Part shown: positions 1,632 through 11,491 of the stretch, in pieces
Position numbering within the stretch: position 1 is the stretch's first letter
Layout of the letters: every line of letters begins with the position of its first letter
UHGV virus genome: UHGV-1672225
Direction: 5' to 3' (one strand)
Length of the DNA stretch: 12,773 nucleotides
From: a virus
The notes under the pieces: generated by a model
What the model saw: only the letters and a program-made list of their open reading frames with translations
What the model was told of the DNA's origin: nothing
Database searches by the model: none
Made by a program: the position numbers and the translations under genes

Positions 1632-1663
1632 AAAAAAAAGCCCCGCCGAAAAAGGCAGGGCTT
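1632..1663 (-). terminator. Intrinsic terminator (tR'-like) immediately upstream of the holin RBS
   Basis: Minus-strand RNA forms a 10-bp GC-rich stem (one G-U) with a 6-nt loop, followed by a run of U (8 A on the plus strand at 1632-1639). Confidence 0.6.
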
Positions 1664-1995
1664 CATAAAGCAACAAATTACGCGGTAATCGCTTAACGCA
1701 GTTTTACTACGTTAAATGAAACACTACACCCAGTTACCACCTAAAACAAGGTTTCCCCATAAAAAAACCTTCATATCGTGGTTAATCGATCAATAAAAAA
1801 GCAACGTTCAACTTTTTACCAACTGAACATCCCGACCAGGACTTCCATAATATTCGCCGATATTCCACTGCTTAAGTTGAGTAATCTTCTCCAACTTAAC
1901 TCCCACAGAATCCAATTTCTGCCATGTTTTCGGTTGTATGTGCCTCATTACCCGCTCTGAATATCTAAATACTGCTCGTAGCCTCGCTAAATTGC

Positions 1996-2703
1996 TCACT
2001 TGTCGCCTCCTTTACGAATCTGTTCCGCCCACTCCTCAAGAGATTTCTCCGCATATTCACCGGACAGGCCATCAATCGGATGCGGTTCATTAGCCAACTC
2101 TTCTTTCGCTGACAAAATCATGCGTGTAACGTCGAAAACTTCACGCAAAGATTTATTGATAAATCCGTGATTGAACGCAGCAGCAAGACGGCTGGCGGTA
2201 TAGTTAATCCCCTCGTTGCGTGCTTCCGCACGAATTTCAGCCAGAAAAGCATCGGTGGCTGAAATATTTCCTGTTGCCTTCATGGCCCCCAAAATAACCA
2301 GAACGCCATCTCGCCCAACCTCCTCAGCGATAACCTCGGTGTTGTCGCCAACAACATCGCAGAATGCCTGAACTGCCTTACGAGCCAGCTCATTCTCCGC
2401 CGCCAGCGCCGCACGACTGGCCTCCAGTTCAGCAATGCGTTTGCTTTGTGCTTCCCGTTCATTCAGCAACGCCTGCACTACTTCTGGGTTGAAAGCTGCG
2501 ATATAACGAGCGTTGTTCTCTGCGTTTTTCTGTCCGTCGAATCCTGGCCAGTCGACAATATCTCCGTGATGATTATCTCCTGGTGTGTGCACAGCGTACG
2601 TGCCGTGTTTGCCCGGCGAAATAAATGCGACCCATTCGCCCTGTGTTGCCTGTTTTGCTATCTCACGTAGCGCCTGATAGTTAATTGCTGTGCTGTTAGT
2701 CAT
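1996..2703 (-). CDS. Ea22-like (ead/Ea22 family) phage protein with coiled-coil middle region
   Basis: Start placed at ATG 2703 (GGAGG 8 nt upstream, 4 nt after the stop of the upstream gene) rather than the ORF-track start at 2748. N-terminal INYQALREIAKQATQGEW resembles the recalled Ea22-like signature; an A/E/L-rich heptad region follows. Confidence 0.45.
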   Translation of the reverse strand: MTNSTAINYQALREIAKQATQGEWVAFISPGKHGTYAVHTPGDNHHGDIVDWPGFDGQKNAENNARYIAAFNPEVVQALLNEREAQSKRIAELEASRAALAAENELARKAVQAFCDVVGDNTEVIAEEVGRDGVLVILGAMKATGNISATDAFLAEIRAEARNEGINYTASRLAAAFNHGFINKSLREVFDVTRMILSAKEELANEPHPIDGLSGEYAEKSLEEWAEQIRKGGDK

Positions 2704-3040
2704 TCCAGGCCTCCAGCTCGTTCTGAATCTCCTCGTCAACCTCGTCATTGGTGGCGTCTTCGTTCAGATGGTCGCGCGCCTCTTTGAGATACTGTTCACG
2801 GCGTTCGTGGTACCAGGCTGAGAACTCCGGCGACCATCCTCGATTAGCCCCCTGAAAATCTACCATCGCATTATCCTCGGCCATACGCTCGACCATGCAA
2901 TCCGCGGTGTTCAGTGCAACCTCACGGATGTACCCCCGCAGGTCGCGCTTACGCCAATACGGGCTATATTTTGAGTCGCAGCGGCCTTTAAATTCGACGG
3001 TCCAGCGACGGATGCAGCGTGCGTTAAGTGATTTGCTCAT
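2696..3040 (-). CDS. Hypothetical acidic protein (114 aa)
   Basis: ORF with AAGGAAG RBS; tightly packed between the ASCH gene and the Ea22-like gene; no recognisable family. Confidence 0.45.
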   Translation of the reverse strand: MSKSLNARCIRRWTVEFKGRCDSKYSPYWRKRDLRGYIREVALNTADCMVERMAEDNAMVDFQGANRGWSPEFSAWYHERREQYLKEARDHLNEDATNDEVDEEIQNELEAWND

Positions 3041-3042
3041 AG

Positions 3043-3663
3043 TTATGCTTCCTTAATACGCTTAAACTCAATTACCCATACCCACGGGTTAGATAGCCAG
3101 TTCTCTTGCCCGTAAATACCGCGCCAGATATCACCAAAGCCAACGCGATAAACAGCTTCCGGCGGTGTAATCTTGTACGTCACCGGAGATGCGCCTTCTG
3201 CTTTAGCATCTGCCTCGCTCATGTCATGCAGCCGCTCCACACGCACGTCGGTAATTTCCAGCAAAATACGCGAAGCCCAGCGCGGCATGTGAATCGACGG
3301 GGTCCAGCCCTCAGCTGGCTTGCTACTATCTGAGTAATCAGCCTTGTAATCACACAGTTCAGAAGCCAGAGAGACACCATCTTTGATTTCCTGAATGACA
3401 TCGTTATCCAGCCAAAAAGCGTTGAATGTTTCACGGACCCATATGCGATCACCAACGTTACCGAACGGGCATAAACCATGTTCCAGTGCATCCATAACGT
3501 GGGTATAGACACCATTGCGTTTCTTTGTCGGTTTACGGATAACCAGGCAGTTATCGGCCCTGACATTTTTTACAGGTCGGCGAGTCTGCGTCTTCCTGCC
3601 TTCGAGGATGGCCCTGACCATCGCATCATTAAAAATCATGCCGCGCTCTTTCATCTTGCTCAC
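3043..3663 (-). CDS. ASCH (PUA-like) domain protein
   Basis: N-terminal MIFNDAMVRAILEGRKTQTRR and C-terminal VWVIEFK match the recalled YqfB/ASCH signature. Start placed at GTG 3663, which overlaps the upstream stop as GTGA and has GGAGG upstream; an in-frame ATG at 3654 is the alternative. ORF-track ATG at 3726 rejected. Confidence 0.55.
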   Translation of the reverse strand: MSKMKERGMIFNDAMVRAILEGRKTQTRRPVKNVRADNCLVIRKPTKKRNGVYTHVMDALEHGLCPFGNVGDRIWVRETFNAFWLDNDVIQEIKDGVSLASELCDYKADYSDSSKPAEGWTPSIHMPRWASRILLEITDVRVERLHDMSEADAKAEGASPVTYKITPPEAVYRVGFGDIWRGIYGQENWLSNPWVWVIEFKRIKEA

Positions 3664-4025
3664 TTCAACTCCTCCCGACGACGTTCCTGAAGCTCTAGCA
3701 TTGCGGCTCGGAAATCCTGCCACCATTCCTCATCTGCAACGGGGGTGTTCCGCTCCAGCACCTTGTCCGCATCGGCGATCAGGTTTGCCAGAATCTTGTC
3801 TGAAATCTTCGTTACCGGAGTCGTTGGTTGCTCAACCTGCCCGATAGGTTTTATCGTGCTCAAAAGGAGGCGACGGCGGGAAAGTGGTGCCCCACAACGA
3901 CGGCCATCTTCCTTGCGATATGTTTCTTTCGGACCAACACACCAGGTTGTCGGCGTTTCGCGCAACTTCACTCTTTTCTCACCATCATTGGTAATGATTA
4001 TTCCGGTATGGGTTTTGATGCTCAT
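3660..4025 (-). CDS. Hypothetical protein (121 aa)
   Basis: ORF whose ATG overlaps the stop of the upstream wHTH gene (ATGA) and whose stop overlaps the ASCH gene start. Confidence 0.45.
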   Translation of the reverse strand: MSIKTHTGIIITNDGEKRVKLRETPTTWCVGPKETYRKEDGRRCGAPLSRRRLLLSTIKPIGQVEQPTTPVTKISDKILANLIADADKVLERNTPVADEEWWQDFRAAMLELQERRREELK

Positions 4026-4303
4026 GCCACAGCCCCTCTCAACGGCTTAACTTTGGCTAATAAGGTGTTAAACAACATGGAGTTAGGATTCATGCCAAAT
4101 GGCAATTCCGGTTTAGCGGAGTAGTACAGGCAACCATTTATTTTCCTAGTTGTTATCTGTCCTTCGGCAACCATGCTTCTCAGTCTGCAACGCATAGAGT
4201 TCTGCGACACACCAATGTGCTCCGCGATTACGTCCACTTTTGAACATGGGTGATCGGTCAGGAAATTAATCACATCTTGGGGGTTAATAATTTTGCGTTT
4301 CAT
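4022..4303 (-). CDS. Winged-helix DNA-binding protein, FaeA/PapI-like
   Basis: Start at ATG 4303 (AAGGA upstream) rather than 4324. The pattern INFLTDHP...VIAEHIGVSQNSMRCRLRSMVAEGQI resembles recalled PapI/FaeA-family regulators. Confidence 0.4.
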   Translation of the reverse strand: MKRKIINPQDVINFLTDHPCSKVDVIAEHIGVSQNSMRCRLRSMVAEGQITTRKINGCLYYSAKPELPFGMNPNSMLFNTLLAKVKPLRGAVA

Positions 4304-4348
4304 TGTCGAGGCGTCCTTATACATTTGTATAAATATATAATTCTATAT

Positions 4349-4370
4349 ACGGCGGGAGACGTCCCGCCGT
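4349..4370 (-). terminator. Perfect 9-bp GC-rich hairpin after the DUF3560-like gene (possible terminator or RNA stability element)
   Basis: ACGGCGGGA-gacg-TCCCGCCGT, 12 nt after the stop at 4381; the downstream minus-strand sequence is AT-rich but not a clean U-run. Confidence 0.4.
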
Positions 4371-4380
4371 AGGCTTACTG

Positions 4381-5448
4381 TCAGGCTTTCAATAGCGATT
4401 CTTTTAGATATCGGGCATCAGCCAGGGCGTTTGGAGTAATCTTGCGAACCCATGCATTACGGGTTGGACTCCACTTAAAGGCGCGTGATTTAAGCAGCGA
4501 ACGAATGTTTGCCTCTGGTTTGCCAGGGAAATAAAACAGGATGCGGTTATCCTCTGGATCTATCTCCATAGAAAAGCCGTCGTATTCTTCGCGCTGTGCT
4601 CCTGTTACAGACTTGACCGATTCAAGCTCCTTAATACGGCTCTGTAGTCGTTTGATTTCGGCGTTATTGTTGCTCAGTGCGTATGAAGGGAATCCGATGC
4701 GCCCACAGAAATCTCCGGCCAGTAACTCTTTGGCTTCGCTTTCTGTAAACCTGAGATCGATTAATGCAGAAAGCTGCTGTATTTGGTCTTTTTTGTATTT
4801 GCGAATGGCCTTATTTGCGGCCTTCATTTTGACGTGTGACTTCATGCAGCCTTGCAGCTTACGAAGCAACTTAAATAGCGCATCAGGATCATCAGACGAA
4901 ATTCCATTACGACCAACACCTGCGGCTTTGCTCTCGTAGTGTGATGCTTTACTTTCGCATTCAACAAACGCTTTTCTGAATAACGCATCAGCTTTAGACA
5001 AACGGCGGCGATGGCCTTTCGCGCTATAATGGTCAACTAAAATCGGCTGGCCTAACGGGATCACATCCAACAGGTCATGCGCTCGCTTATGCGCTACCGC
5101 ACCTTCTTTTCTGGCTTTTTCTGCACGAGCAATATATCGGGCAAGACGCGCGTTCTGGCGTTCCTGATAGGTGTTTACGTAATCATCTCCGCGCTGCTGC
5201 TGTTCAAGCCATGCTTTGCGCAGATCTTCTGTTACGTCCACCAGCTCCGCAGGGATACAACCAGTTTGGGCTTCATAAGAGTAACCATCCTCATAGATAC
5301 GCCCATCGTCTTCAACAAAGAAAAAGGTTTCGTGCTCATCGCTTTTGACCATACGACCATTAACATGGCGTAATAGGTAGCCAGTATCAGTGCTTAACAG
5401 GCTGTTAGGGTTGTTGATCCAGTCAGAAATAATTACTTGTTTATTCAT
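4381..5448 (-). CDS. DUF3560-like protein (355 aa), function unknown
   Basis: Start at ATG 5448 (GGAGA 7 nt upstream) rather than 5529. Central GQPILVDHYSAKGHRRRL resembles the recalled DUF3560 motif; long K/E-rich helical middle region. Confidence 0.45.
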   Translation of the reverse strand: MNKQVIISDWINNPNSLLSTDTGYLLRHVNGRMVKSDEHETFFFVEDDGRIYEDGYSYEAQTGCIPAELVDVTEDLRKAWLEQQQRGDDYVNTYQERQNARLARYIARAEKARKEGAVAHKRAHDLLDVIPLGQPILVDHYSAKGHRRRLSKADALFRKAFVECESKASHYESKAAGVGRNGISSDDPDALFKLLRKLQGCMKSHVKMKAANKAIRKYKKDQIQQLSALIDLRFTESEAKELLAGDFCGRIGFPSYALSNNNAEIKRLQSRIKELESVKSVTGAQREEYDGFSMEIDPEDNRILFYFPGKPEANIRSLLKSRAFKWSPTRNAWVRKITPNALADARYLKESLLKA

Positions 5449-5616
5449 CAGATTTCTCCGGTTTAACCAGGGCGGGTATCGCTCGGTTTCGGGTATAACA
5501 TAGGAAATTTTTTCCCACCTGTAAAGCACTTTTTATATAAATCTATAATTATATATTTATAGATTTTCGATGTTCCCGATGTCTACACACCATCAAAACA
5601 GCTCAAAATGACACTT

Positions 5617-5994
5617 TTACTCTCTTCGCTTTTTCAAATAGTCGACAACATACGCCCTGGCTTTTGCCAGCTTCCGGCGATACTGTCTGAGGCTAAGAGA
5701 AAGGGCGTGGGCTTTATCAATATGCGGTGCATTTATGTCGAGGCCCCGAATCTCCCACGCCCCGTATTCAATTCGGACAACCAGCGCCGCAGTCTCATCA
5801 ACTACCGTGAGGGCCGTCACCGCTCCCTCTATACTGGTTTCCAGTGAGTCATTTGGTGCGCCGCCCCCTCCGGTAAACTGGCAGCGCGTAACCATCATCA
5901 TTTCTAACATCGACGCGAAACCGCTACGGGCGTTGCAGCCATTGCGCACCCACAGCGCCCATAGCTCAAACAAGCTATCCAGATCGCGTCTCAC
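5617..5994 (-). CDS. Candidate Q-like antiterminator (Phage_antitermQ-type), GTG start
   Basis: 125 aa; N-terminal LFELWALW and C-terminal basic helix loosely resemble the small Q-like antiterminator family; sits at the end of the nin-like block. Weak call. Confidence 0.35.
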   Translation of the reverse strand: MRRDLDSLFELWALWVRNGCNARSGFASMLEMMMVTRCQFTGGGGAPNDSLETSIEGAVTALTVVDETAALVVRIEYGAWEIRGLDINAPHIDKAHALSLSLRQYRRKLAKARAYVVDYLKKRRE

Positions 5995-5997
5995 TGT

Positions 5998-6330
5998 TCA
6001 GATCTCCCGTATCGTGACGGGATAAAGCGCCTCTACCTGCTTTTTCTTCATGATGTAGACGTCTGTTCGCACACCTTTAGTGTCGACACAATCAATCGTC
6101 CCATCGTCATAAAACACCATGAAATCAAGTTTATAAACGACACCACCTGGCAGATGAAAAGGCACCTGCATAAGAAACGTCACAACGCGGCCAGCTTTTC
6201 TCAGTAGCTTCAGTTCGCAGTAGTAATCAGCCTCTTTTTTGCTATCAAAAGCGATATCATCGACAACCGTTTTTTTATTGCCGTATTTGCTTTTCCTTGT
6301 CGCTGGTTTGCGAAAGCCGGTATATCTCAT
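5998..6330 (-). CDS. DUF1064 family phage protein
   Basis: YGNKKTVVDDIAFDSKKEADYY matches the recalled DUF1064 signature; ATGA-coupled to the upstream Ref-like gene. Confidence 0.55.
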   Translation of the reverse strand: MRYTGFRKPATRKSKYGNKKTVVDDIAFDSKKEADYYCELKLLRKAGRVVTFLMQVPFHLPGGVVYKLDFMVFYDDGTIDCVDTKGVRTDVYIMKKKQVEALYPVTIREI

Positions 6331-7986: not shown

Positions 7987-8022
7987 ACCACGATACGTGG
8001 TATTAAAACCACATATCGTGAG
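7987..8022. promoter_or_regulatory. Two adjacent operator-like palindromes (ACCAC-N5-GTGGT type)
   Basis: ACCACGATACGTGGT at 7987-8001 is a perfect inverted repeat; ACCACATATCGTGAG at 8008-8022 is imperfect. Both are preceded by AAA. Confidence 0.55.
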
Positions 8023-8141: not shown

Positions 8142-8798
8142 ATGAAAAGCAACGACGAGAACATCAAGAAAGAAATAGGTCTGCGCATTCAGACTCTACG
8201 GAAACAATCCGGCATGACTGCCGGAGATCTCCAGCAAGTCACTGGAATAGGCTTAAGCACCTTGCAGAACTATGAGGCCGGATTAAGACAACCATCTATA
8301 CCTGCCATCAAGAAAATCGCGCACGCCCTGAAAGCATCAGCGCCTTATATCGCGTGCTTAACAGATAACCCGTTCCCACCCCAGAATACTAACGCTCCTG
8401 TTATTCCTGGGCTTGTAGCTATAAAAAATGACATAGCATCGCACGCCGGAGAAAAGCCAGTGCTGGCGATAGAACAGGAGATTCTACGAAGCAAGAACAT
8501 CAACCCATCGTCTCTGTCAGTTCTCCAGAGCAACGATGAGTTAATGTCACCAACAATATCCCCAGGCTCCCAAGTCCTGATTAATACAGACGATACAGAG
8601 ATTCATGAGGGGATCTATGCCCTTGAAGACAGAAATGGCCTGGTTGTTTTGAGGCACTGTAGAGTCATACCGGGTGACAATGCTGTTATGCTGTCAACCG
8701 AAAGGGATGCTGAAATGAACACTAAGCATCTGAATAACGAGGAATTTAAGCGTTATAAAGTTCTTGGCCGCGTAGTTAGTGTTGTCAACTGGTTATGA
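8142..8798 (+). CDS. CI-like phage repressor (XRE-type HTH plus S24 LexA-like peptidase domain)
   Basis: N-terminal LRIQTLRKQSGMTAGDLQQVTGIGLSTLQNYEAG is HTH-like; the C-terminal 100 aa has an S24-like fold pattern; divergent from the Cro-like gene. Confidence 0.7.
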   Translation: MKSNDENIKKEIGLRIQTLRKQSGMTAGDLQQVTGIGLSTLQNYEAGLRQPSIPAIKKIAHALKASAPYIACLTDNPFPPQNTNAPVIPGLVAIKNDIASHAGEKPVLAIEQEILRSKNINPSSLSVLQSNDELMSPTISPGSQVLINTDDTEIHEGIYALEDRNGLVVLRHCRVIPGDNAVMLSTERDAEMNTKHLNNEEFKRYKVLGRVVSVVNWL

Positions 8799-9290: not shown

Positions 9291-9392
9291 TATGATTATA
9301 GATTTATATAATTATATAAAACGCTTTTCATCAGCCAAAAAGTTGGTTATGCTTACCTCGTTCTATAAATATAGATTTATAGAATTATATAA
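9291..9392. promoter_or_regulatory. AT-rich arrays with TATA boxes at 8-bp phase upstream of parA (candidate operator or centromere-like site)
   Basis: 9296-9321 TTATAGATTTATATAATTATATAAAA and 9361-9392 TTCTATAAATATAGATTTATAGAATTATATAA; the second also contains the palindrome TCTATA-AA-TATAGA. Confidence 0.4.
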
Positions 9393-10069: not shown

Positions 10070-10100
10070 TATATAATTATAGTTTTATAGATTTATATAA
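10066..10100. promoter_or_regulatory. Third TATA-phased AT-rich array between parA and the RHH gene
   Basis: TATAtaatTATAgtttTATAgattTATAtaag: four TATA boxes at exact 8-bp spacing, overlapping the parA stop. Confidence 0.4.
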
Positions 10101-10573: not shown

Positions 10574-10590
10574 ATTCAGCCATAAAAAAA

Positions 10591-10606
10591 GGCCCCCGAA
10601 GGGGCC
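10591..10606 (-). terminator. Intrinsic terminator hairpin (minus-strand orientation, possibly bidirectional)
   Basis: GGCCCC-cgaa-GGGGCC preceded on the plus strand by 7 A (a U-run on the minus transcript); no T-run on the plus side. Confidence 0.45.
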
Positions 10607-11132
10607 TAATCGCTACTTGCTGCTAATGTTTATCGTCACATTCAGAGCGTTATCAGTAATCTTCCAACCCTCCCCATGTGGCGTAAACAAAGCCCCAGTA
10701 ACAACGATAAAAATACACATACAGTATTTTTTCATTGTATGGCCCTTACAGGCCGTTTCACGGCATCCCCACCGACGAAAACAACGCGAGAGCAAGCACG
10801 GCTGCTTGTGCTTGCATGTACGGCAACGGAGAATCCTCCCCTAAAGTCGGTGCCCGGGTGCGAATCGGCGGGAAGGTCCACAGGTATTTTACGATTATTT
10901 TAAGATTAGTAATAGGAAAGAAATTAAACGAAAAAACTCGTTTATTTTCACAAAATCAGTAACCTACCCACAATCTGTGAGTTTGCAGGCACAACAAGAA
11001 CCACAATTTTTTGAAGCATAATAGTGGACTATTATTACCTTTTGGGTAAAATTAACTTGCTGCTTGTGCTTGCGTGGTTGTTTATACAACAACGTAATGC
11101 TGAAAGGACCGCGAATCCGATCAGCACGAAAG

Positions 11133-11159
11133 AACCGTCCTCAATAGGGCGGTTTTTTT
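11133..11159 (+). terminator. Intrinsic terminator inside the ORF-poor region
   Basis: AACCGTCC-tcaata-GGGCGGTT (8 bp, one G-U) followed by TTTTTGTTT. Confidence 0.5.
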
Positions 11160-11305
11160 GTTTCTGCCTACCAATAAACCCACGCTATGTGGTTGTCTCT
11201 GTTAAAATCCTGCCGTATTGACATGAATGCGCCATTGGTGGACACTTTCCGAGCCGTAGCAAAATCTACGGTCGGGATTGGAACCCCGATAATCATCATG
11301 GCGCA

Positions 11306-11326
11306 TACCGCGTTAGCGGTTTTTTT
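11306..11326 (+). terminator. Second intrinsic terminator in the leader (candidate sRNA 3' end)
   Basis: ACCGC-gtta-GCGGT followed by a 6-T run; a perfect -35 TTGACA lies about 90 nt upstream at 11218-11223. Confidence 0.4.
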
Positions 11327-11491
11327 ATGCGTAAAGCACTGCTACACCCAAATTATGGTGGGGCGTGCGGGGGAGTCGTAAGACTCGCCGGATTCCATGG
11401 TGACCGGTAGTTCCAACCCTGTACGTCTCACCACCCAATGATTGGAACCAGACGGTGGTGAGTATCCTTAACCTTTAAGGGAACTATCACC

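Follow-up and report, generated by a model that had tools for sequence, protein, structure and literature searches.

A probable mosaic of accessory gene cassettes beside the lysis genes of an Escherichia coli phage-plasmid

Do the small, tightly packed genes that lie between a Q-like regulatory gene and the lysis cassette of the virus genome UHGV-1672225 work together as one module, or were they brought together independently? The question arises from the original prediction for this locus, in which five genes linked by overlaps or very short gaps were proposed as a possible anti-defense or host-modulating operon, and it is addressed here in the window, that is, the whole stretch of 12,773 nucleotides that was analyzed. 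Our results indicate that the array is probably a mosaic of six independent accessory cassettes set in a hypervariable segment, with no dedicated functional module, and as a gene cluster it is ordinary. The cassettes would come from a pool of genes that is situated next to the recombination genes in lambdoid, P22-like and P1-like phages (the ea/exo-xis-type early region), and the short start/stop overlaps between them are conserved junctions where cassettes are exchanged. The array genes would be co-transcribed with the lytic program, each product acting alone.

Structure and mosaicism of the array

All five open reading frames (ORFs) of the original prediction are present on the minus strand at the coordinates claimed for them: those of a winged helix-turn-helix (wHTH) protein of 93 aa (4303..4022), of a 121-aa protein (g121, 4025..3660), of an ASCH protein (from GTG at 3663, 206 aa, or from ATG at 3654, 203 aa, the choice made in RefSeq, to 3043), of a 114-aa protein (g114, 3040..2696) and of an Ead/Ea22-like protein of 235 aa (2703..1996). 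The start/stop overlaps ATGA (4025-4022), between wHTH and g121, and GTGA (3663-3660), between g121 and ASCH, are likewise there. Gaps of 2-4 nt had been claimed for the rest, which is true of ASCH and g114 (2 nt apart) but not of g114 and Ea22, which overlap by 8 nt (ATGACTAA, 2703-2696), and the count of five genes had to be raised to six, since a further ORF of 63 aa (orf63, 1999..1808, minus strand) is coupled too, its GTG overlapping the Ea22 stop (GTGA) after a strong AAGGAGG Shine-Dalgarno sequence. It is a genuine sixth gene of the array, for which most RefSeq copies have no annotation. Its product, with the motifs FRYSER and LKQWHxGEYYG, is 52-53% identical in L094 and L095, two diverged relatives in which the lysis genes differ. 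A Shine-Dalgarno sequence stands ahead of each array start, and the whole is a co-directional, translationally coupled set of small accessory genes, placed between a 125-aa gene in the Q position (the Q-position gene) and a DUF3560 gene on one side, and the lysis cassette on the other. Tight coupling is no peculiarity of these genes, as overlaps of 1-4 nt are found equally in the upstream early genes and in the lysis genes of the element (in the coordinates of the relative L001, see below), and base composition (GC 0.50-0.54) is the same as in the flanks and gives no signature of foreign DNA.

The window is 98-99% identical to circular E. coli plasmids of 47-49 kb that carry a complete set of myovirus genes besides RepA and ParA, and likewise to the Yersinia phages vB_YpM_39/41/44; its source element is a circular, non-integrating myovirus phage-plasmid of E. 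coli of ~47 kb. One complete relative, L001 (NZ_CP200273.1), carries RepA, ParA and toxin-antitoxin genes together with those for terminase, portal, capsid, sheath, tube, baseplate and fibers. A paper on the Yersinia phage HQ103 was set aside as not relevant, for it concerns an unrelated 32-kb phage.

Of 5426 complete E. coli genomes, 74 have the neighboring backbone (4381-6330), which is at least 99% identical in 64 of them, while only 24 of the E. coli genomes, and only 18 plasmids in PLSDB, have at least 80% of the array. Fragments of it are spread over 1162 E. coli genomes, for the most part within chromosomal prophages, and are present in P1-like phage-plasmids too. Among close relatives, identity is 96-100% for wHTH and g121, 73-100% for ASCH, 68-100% for g114 (or the gene is absent) and 65-100% for Ea22 (or it is partial or absent), and additional genes are inserted after g121 and, up to ~2 kb, after Ea22. 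A 183-bp cassette encoding a small Cys-rich protein, bounded by GTGAGCAAGA and ATGAAAGA, lies between g121 and ASCH in L001 (39720-39905) and in many relatives; it is missing from the window, where the site is at 3654-3663 and the strong Shine-Dalgarno sequence and GTG that belong to the cassette in the relatives are in frame with ASCH. Further away, in relatives whose Q-position gene is 50-92% identical, the upstream synteny is kept and the 4-6 kb down to the holin are different, the 66 ORFs of that segment in eight distant relatives including MT-A70 methylases (2), a C5 DNA methylase, Lar, HNH (2), NinG, a Pfam ASCH protein and Ea22. The position is therefore hypervariable beside a backbone at least 99% identical, and the cargo hotspot originally supposed at this place is a reality in this family.

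The array genes also have different companions elsewhere. In the 77 viral loci outside the lineage that carry an ASCH gene of the same type (that of the P1 gene pmgT), an Ea22-like gene is nearby in 21 and g114 in 10, and the N half of g121 is found in eight, there downstream of ASCH, on the opposite side to its place in the window; wHTH, DUF3560 and orf63 were found in none of the 77. The g114 protein, conserved and confined to Enterobacteriaceae prophages, is nearly always exactly 114 aa long, and in 80 loci (79 with a call for the upstream neighbor) it is preceded by RecT in 38/79 and by an 84-aa wHTH protein in 21/79, the latter homologous to the wHTH protein of the window (pairwise E=2e-6). 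What follows g114 is far more diverse: in the 80 loci, the next gene always starts in the same ATGAC overlap (at position 3338 of loci L110-L188, inside the ATGAC of ...TGG AAT GAC TAA), and at least 15 different, unrelated genes occupy this slot, among them ASCH (13), a dATP/dGTP pyrophosphohydrolase (12), a methyltransferase-like gene (7) and Ea22 (5). Because the overlap is shared, the products of all the genes after g114 begin with 'MT'. The g114 stop and the next start thus form a conserved junction for cassette exchange.

Mosaicism reaches inside one of the genes, as g121 is a chimera of two unrelated modules. Its residues 3-63 match stand-alone prophage proteins of 66-70 aa, its residues 71-120 resemble the N-terminal half of another, separate protein of ~105 aa, and in PHROG, too, its two halves have matches of their own; the homologs P0140, P0200, P0137 and P0122 were among the compared sequences behind this two-part structure. 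Other recombinants were seen as well, in which an N half of the g121 type is joined to an Ea22 fragment; g121 itself would be a product of recombination.

Given the independent co-occurrence patterns and the variable slot after g114, the start/stop overlaps mark cassette junctions and not functional coupling, which calls for caution elsewhere, as tight coupling in phage genomes should not be taken to indicate a module. The five-gene composition is specific to this lineage, in support of the original prediction, and the same five genes were not found conserved as ordinary late genes across lambdoid phages. The notion of a single functional module did not survive: outside the lineage the genes do not occur together, their order varies, g121 is chimeric and the junctions are cassette boundaries.

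Non-coding elements and timing of transcription

Leftward of the immunity region all genes of the window are transcribed on the minus strand. The cI-like repressor gene (8142-8798, plus strand) is followed by five small early genes, including those for the Ref nuclease and a DUF1064 protein, then by the Q-position gene (5994..5617), which is the last of the conserved early block, the DUF3560 gene (5448..4381, 355 aa; PF12083, 4.4e-31), the array and, downstream, a lysis cassette of two holins, a GH108 endolysin and an Rz-like gene. The early order (g164-g171-g77-Ref-(DUF1064)-Qlike) holds down to 50% identity.

The 125-aa product of the Q-position gene has a sigma-region-4-like helix-turn-helix (HTH) in its C-terminal half. 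As a single sequence it matched nothing in Pfam or the PDB, and a scan of all proteins against NCBIfam gave nothing useful besides its weak match to PA0613_fam (2.5e-4), a family named after a gene that has been grouped with pyocin regulatory genes and adjoins the lytic gene PA0614 (PMC11871291). Among 1.8 billion representatives that were searched, there were 77 relatives of 110-160 aa, and a profile of 68 of these matched phage 21 Q (6jnx_P, 6p18_P) with E=3.2e-4, over only ~40 N-terminal residues; five of the 68 match PF06530 weakly (best 3.6e-4). On this weak profile match to phage 21 Q, limited to the N-terminal 40 residues, we regard the label 'Q-like' as no more than plausible.

Between the Q-position gene and the array, the promoter scan called a promoter-like site (TTTACA-17-TATGTT, 5525-5497, minus strand) upstream of DUF3560, and a 28-bp AT-rich palindrome (5539-5566) lies between the Q-position gene and DUF3560; both are conserved in L094. 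Just past the DUF3560 stop there is a GC-rich hairpin with a 10-bp stem (ACGGCGGGAC-GTCT-CCCGCCGT, 4348..4369, minus strand; -18.9 kcal/mol, z=-3.4), the stem of which is retained with another loop in L094, where the flanking proteins are only 62-68% identical. The sequence after the stem is AT-rich, with no clean U-run, and the terminator scan made no call there; the hairpin, which marks the 5' edge of the array, may weakly terminate transcription or else stabilize the RNA. Just before the wHTH start there is a cluster of the AT-rich repeat TTATAGAWTTATATA (4317..4348, minus strand), ~90% conserved in L094, which includes a 7-bp inverted repeat (TTATACA-AA-TGTATAA, 4332-4317) and is a candidate operator or promoter region. 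Morons are autonomous units of promoter, gene and terminator that are expressed from the prophage and deviate in base composition. Seen as a possible moron, the array has no sigma-70-like promoter called by the scan before wHTH, a hairpin upstream, a strong terminator downstream, and the GC content of its flanks.

The repeat is not confined to this place. There are 13 matches to TTATAGAWTTATATA in the window (0.05 expected) and 27 in the L001 plasmid (0.26 expected), where all but one fall within eight intergenic clusters, three of them surrounding parA and an 82-aa ParG-like ORF. The clusters of the window, with 8-bp phased sub-repeats, are at 4317-4348, 5534-5566, 9296-9319, 9369-9392 and 10077-10099, and two of them flank DUF3560, leading into the array. 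They may serve to bind a regulatory protein or one involved in partition. In the phage-plasmid N15, dispersed partition sites have been reported to influence late gene expression (Ravin et al. 2008, as cited in PMC11652158), a parallel that we would take as only a lead.

At the other end of the array, a strong intrinsic terminator with an 11-bp stem and a U8 run (1637..1664, minus strand; -23.5 kcal/mol, z=-4.9) was called by the terminator scan directly upstream of the Shine-Dalgarno sequence and ATG (1618) of the holin, and sets array and lysis cassette apart. A terminator with the same structure and another stem sequence is present at the equivalent place in L094. Between orf63 and this terminator lies a 35-nt non-coding element (GTGTAGTGTTTCATTTAACGTAGTAAAACTGCGTT, 1695..1729, minus strand), of which 12 loci have an exact copy, among them L094 and L095, in which the genes on either side are diverged or substituted by others; it is a candidate late-control site, either a promoter or a loading site for an antiterminator. 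No convincing sigma-70 promoter was seen by eye between orf63 and the terminator, and none came from the scan. Rfam gave no curated RNA family at gathering threshold within the array, and a GcvB-like match in 1632-1789 stayed below threshold (34 bits against 42). Taken together, 1637-1729 may be a late promoter, an antiterminator site or a short-RNA unit like lambda PR'-tR'.

The arrangement is a promoter-like site after the Q-position gene and, 3.9 kb further on, a strong terminator with a conserved element. One account of the timing, compatible with the mosaic origin of the array, is that the genes are strict lambda-type late cargo, transcribed from a Q-dependent promoter at 5525-5497 with read-through of the 4369-4348 hairpin and the 1664-1637 terminator, as is stx in Stx phages. 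The distant relationship of the Q-like family to phage 21 Q, the conserved promoter-like site after its gene and the two hairpins or terminators further along the same strand all agree with this account, which we hold to be possible, if on balance doubtful, given that the match to phage 21 Q covers only 40 residues with E of ~3e-4 and that the most conserved non-coding element is downstream of the array, beside the strong terminator. Since the conserved element and the terminator stand where a PR'/qut/tR' of the lambda type is expected, the array would instead be upstream of the late unit, among the early genes. The array may thus follow either of two timing models, as late cargo read from a promoter after the Q-like gene or as early genes upstream of a lambda-style late control unit at 1637-1729, and the conserved non-coding elements that bracket the array could reveal how lytic genes are controlled in this phage-plasmid family.

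Other regulatory elements of the window were noted in passing. Between the cI-like gene and the first early gene, at 7988-8021 (minus strand), a palindrome with a 14-bp stem (TCACGATATGTGGT...ACCACGTATCGTGG) is followed by TTTT and could be an operator or an early terminator (nut/tR1-like). Above the gathering score, Rfam recognized the Hfq-binding RNA isrK, the C4 antisense RNA (of the P1/P7 immI type) and the ryfA RNA, the coordinates of the set being 11253-11326, 11351-11438 (plus strand) and 10585-10881 (minus strand). In L001, the part of the plasmid equivalent to this end of the window has, beyond the par locus, an annotated ORF6N-domain gene (30341-31522) that we take to be a likely antirepressor. 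Given these RNA matches and the ORF6N gene of L001, a second immunity circuit of the P1 kind, based on RNA, may exist in the element.

Gene products and alternative explanations

The protein families named in the original prediction fared unequally in searches with hidden Markov models, as Ea22 was recovered in Pfam, ASCH was recovered by fold search with no Pfam match, and the FaeA/PapI label of the wHTH protein fell below the cutoff (PF04703, 16.9 bits, E=0.008, with a Pfam gathering cutoff of 20.7). The wHTH protein matches phrog_1687, 'MarR family', at 5e-32, and has weak PDB matches to the wHTH proteins NolR and GntR, which supports its assignment as a small winged-helix DNA-binding protein; it would act as a small regulator. 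The Ea22-like protein matches PF13935 over residues 22-143 (1.6e-23, 84.3 bits, with a cutoff of 27), and the C-terminal third of its gene has 90-98% DNA identity to genes annotated as Eae or Ea22-like in Stx, P22-like and P1-like phages; against the solved Ea22 chains the protein gave no match, its C-terminal part included. Two papers report that lambda Ea22 favors lysogeny (PMC7093339, PMC10834534), and the Ea22-like protein would likewise modulate the balance between lysis and lysogeny, from a gene placed outside the exo-xis or early-left setting, between the Q-like gene and the lysis genes. For g114, an all-helical bundle was confidently predicted (predicted local distance difference test, pLDDT, 87), the N half being basic and the acidic tail, which closes with ...ELEAWND, invariant; a fold search with this model gave no informative match. 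Single-sequence PDB searches with the ASCH, Ea22, Q-like and wHTH proteins gave nothing or generic HTH matches only.

The most useful lead concerns the ASCH protein, which belongs to phrog_874, is 44% identical to P1 PmgT over 87% of the protein, and has more than 8000 relatives, in P1 and in Pseudomonas, Vibrio, Burkholderia and Salinibacter phages. A fold search with its predicted model confirms the ASCH beta-barrel (PUA-like) fold. No Pfam family was matched at E<=0.01, PF04266 included, and the 120 listed homologs have no precomputed Pfam domain. The octapeptide G19-R-K21-T-Q-T24-R-R26 (GRKTQTRR), which follows the YqfB-type pattern GxKxx[T/S]xR, corresponds to GRKTITIR in E. coli YqfB, with Lys21, Thr24 and Arg26 numbered identically; across 20 homologs, G19, K21 and T24 do not vary and conservation of R26 is at least 90%, and all four are invariant in an alignment of P1 PmgT, SPC32H_047, three IMG/VR homologs and YqfB. 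YqfB is an N4-acetylcytidine (ac4C) amidohydrolase in which Lys21, Thr24 and Arg26 are essential and Glu74 is catalytic (PMC6972931), and a 2026 preprint uses GK[T/S]R to define the YqfB-type subgroup and reports that diverse ASCH proteins remove ac4C from tRNA (bioRxiv 2026.02.27.708502). The invariant Glu153 was aligned with Glu74 of YqfB both by hhalign (probability 9%, E=0.0037) and by MAFFT, so that its equivalence, which rests on two concordant, weak alignments and the fold match, should be taken as putative. Both proteins end in ...VIEFK. A profile of the 20 homologs against PDB sequences matched only a ribosomal protein, which was judged to be a chance match.

There are clear differences from YqfB (PDB 1te7, 9kyf), as the ASCH protein of the window is twice as long (203 vs 103 aa), with two poorly modeled insertions (residues ~27-67 and ~76-127), has Asp149 in place of His70, and is missed by the Pfam ASCH model. 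Unlike E. coli YqfB, it is phage-borne and very widespread, its activity being predicted from sequence and fold. It would be a YqfB-type enzyme resembling an N4-acylcytidine amidohydrolase and acting on a modified nucleoside or on RNA. Extending this, we can conceive, with rather little confidence, that PmgT-type ASCH proteins are YqfB-like removers of cytidine N4-acyl groups, erasing ac4C from host tRNA or other RNA, or acting on modified nucleotides, and thereby reprogramming host translation or blunting modification-dependent defense during lytic growth, with the further possibility of a regulator that switches the array through binding at the TTATAGAWTTATATA repeats, which the array and the par locus have in common. 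Since the PmgT family keeps the full YqfB catalytic motif, there is a cheap and concrete assay for a phage family of 'unknown function'.

Genes of the ASCH fold were also seen in other lineages. In an equivalent accessory slot, locus L103 has an unrelated, classical ASCH gene (10664-11245) with a Pfam PF04266 match, and L145 has a candidate (3338-3643) with no Pfam match, judged from its GEKTEEYR motif (GxKxxExR) alone; ASCH-fold genes of different lineages therefore recur in such regions.

Several observations weigh against a mosaic of free cassettes. The wHTH gene and the N half of g121 accompany DUF3560 even in L094 and L095 and therefore behave as lineage backbone; indeed, the wHTH protein, 100% identical across close relatives and 51-62% identical in those two, belongs with DUF3560 to the lineage backbone. 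The conserved AT-rich repeat and the hairpin upstream of wHTH suggest that the array may be regulated separately, and a shared counter-defense role of its products is possible. When g114 and a PmgT-type ASCH gene occur together they are always adjacent, which could reflect a functional link. Finally, the ASCH model is of moderate quality (pLDDT 68), besides having no Pfam ASCH match.

One alternative is the operon of the original prediction, in which the five or six products would jointly neutralize host restriction or defense under the control of the wHTH regulator. Relatives hold orphan MT-A70 and C5 methylases and Lar, all with known anti-restriction roles, in the same segment; the array genes are translationally coupled, a conserved repeat and a hairpin lie just upstream of wHTH, and the acidic tail of g114 is invariant, acidic tails being a feature of some DNA-mimic inhibitors. 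Yet the genes do not co-occur and are ordered differently outside the lineage, two thirds of the family members with the same backbone are without the full set, g121 is a chimera, and g114 had no informative fold match. PADLOC, whose models are of defense and not of anti-defense systems, gave zero matches at E<=0.01 among the seven proteins scanned, and no Lar, ArdA or similar family was matched in Pfam at E<=0.01 by the five array proteins. No functional study was found in the literature on the phage-plasmid family, PmgT, PA0613 or the RefSeq protein accessions, and the accessions are mentioned in no paper. We consider such an operon improbable, and individual genes may nonetheless have an anti-defense role, as relatives hold methylases and Lar in the same slot.

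The adjacency of g114 and ASCH could also mean that these two alone, e.g., as an enzyme and its partner or inhibitor, form a functional pair among unrelated cassettes. All 19 viral loci with both genes within 3 kb have them directly adjacent, the order being g114->ASCH, with an overlap of 4 nt, in 13 and ASCH->g114 in six, and the ASCH alleles involved are only 40-48% identical to that of the window; in eight of the 10 outside ASCH loci with g114, the latter is directly upstream and overlaps the ASCH start. Nevertheless, the partner is present in only 19 of 80 g114 loci and 10 of 77 ASCH loci, at least 15 unrelated genes fill the same junction after g114, the phage-plasmid relatives L006 and L042 retain ASCH without g114, and the adjacent cases may stem from only three or four ancestral junctions. 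Because the slot after g114 is a general cassette site, the pair seems to us as improbable as the operon. It is hardly credible that the array is made up of ordinary conserved genes that serve known, essential late functions of the phage, for although the P1 homolog was historically given the name pmgT for a 'putative morphogenetic function' and 'morphogenetic protein' appears among database names, the genes come and go among near-identical phage-plasmids, PHROG classes all of them but wHTH as 'unknown function', and ASCH is a fold of enzymes or RNA-binding proteins, not a structural one.

Likeness to known accessory regions

Preferring the mosaic of accessory cassettes, we find one of its closest counterparts in the exo-xis 'ea' regions of lambda, Stx phages and P22 (ea22, ea8.5, orf60a-63; eaA-eaI), in which small, non-essential, packed early genes undergo rampant cassette exchange, as in the array. 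The array likewise holds a gene of the Ea22 family, and relatives of g114 and wHTH adjoin RecT and genes annotated as Ea-type in other prophages. The ea regions differ in belonging to an early-left operon beside int/xis/exo, whereas the array is found in a non-integrating phage-plasmid that has a myovirus tail, its place there being between the regulator in the Q position and the lysis cassette.

A similar company of genes is found in the P1-like phage vB_EcoM-Ro157c2YLVW, where the pmgT locus consists of ASCH fragments followed by small ORFs, an Ea22-like gene and DUF4752. In P1 itself, by contrast, pmgT stands alone between pap and phd/doc, and the C-terminus of PmgT is longer than that of the ASCH protein of the window and different from it.

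With respect to position, the array resembles the cargo slot between Q and the lysis genes of lambdoid phages, which holds stx and morons downstream of PR'. It has the same relative place, after a small, distantly Q21-like regulator and before the holin, the segment is here too hypervariable among relatives, and there are terminators on the path. The cargo is nonetheless of the ea type and not toxins, and the strong terminator and conserved element come after the cargo and not before it, the function of Q and the position of the late promoter being putative here. The phage-plasmid thus seems to hold a shuffled accessory array of the lambdoid type, moved to the slot between its Q-like gene and its lysis cassette.

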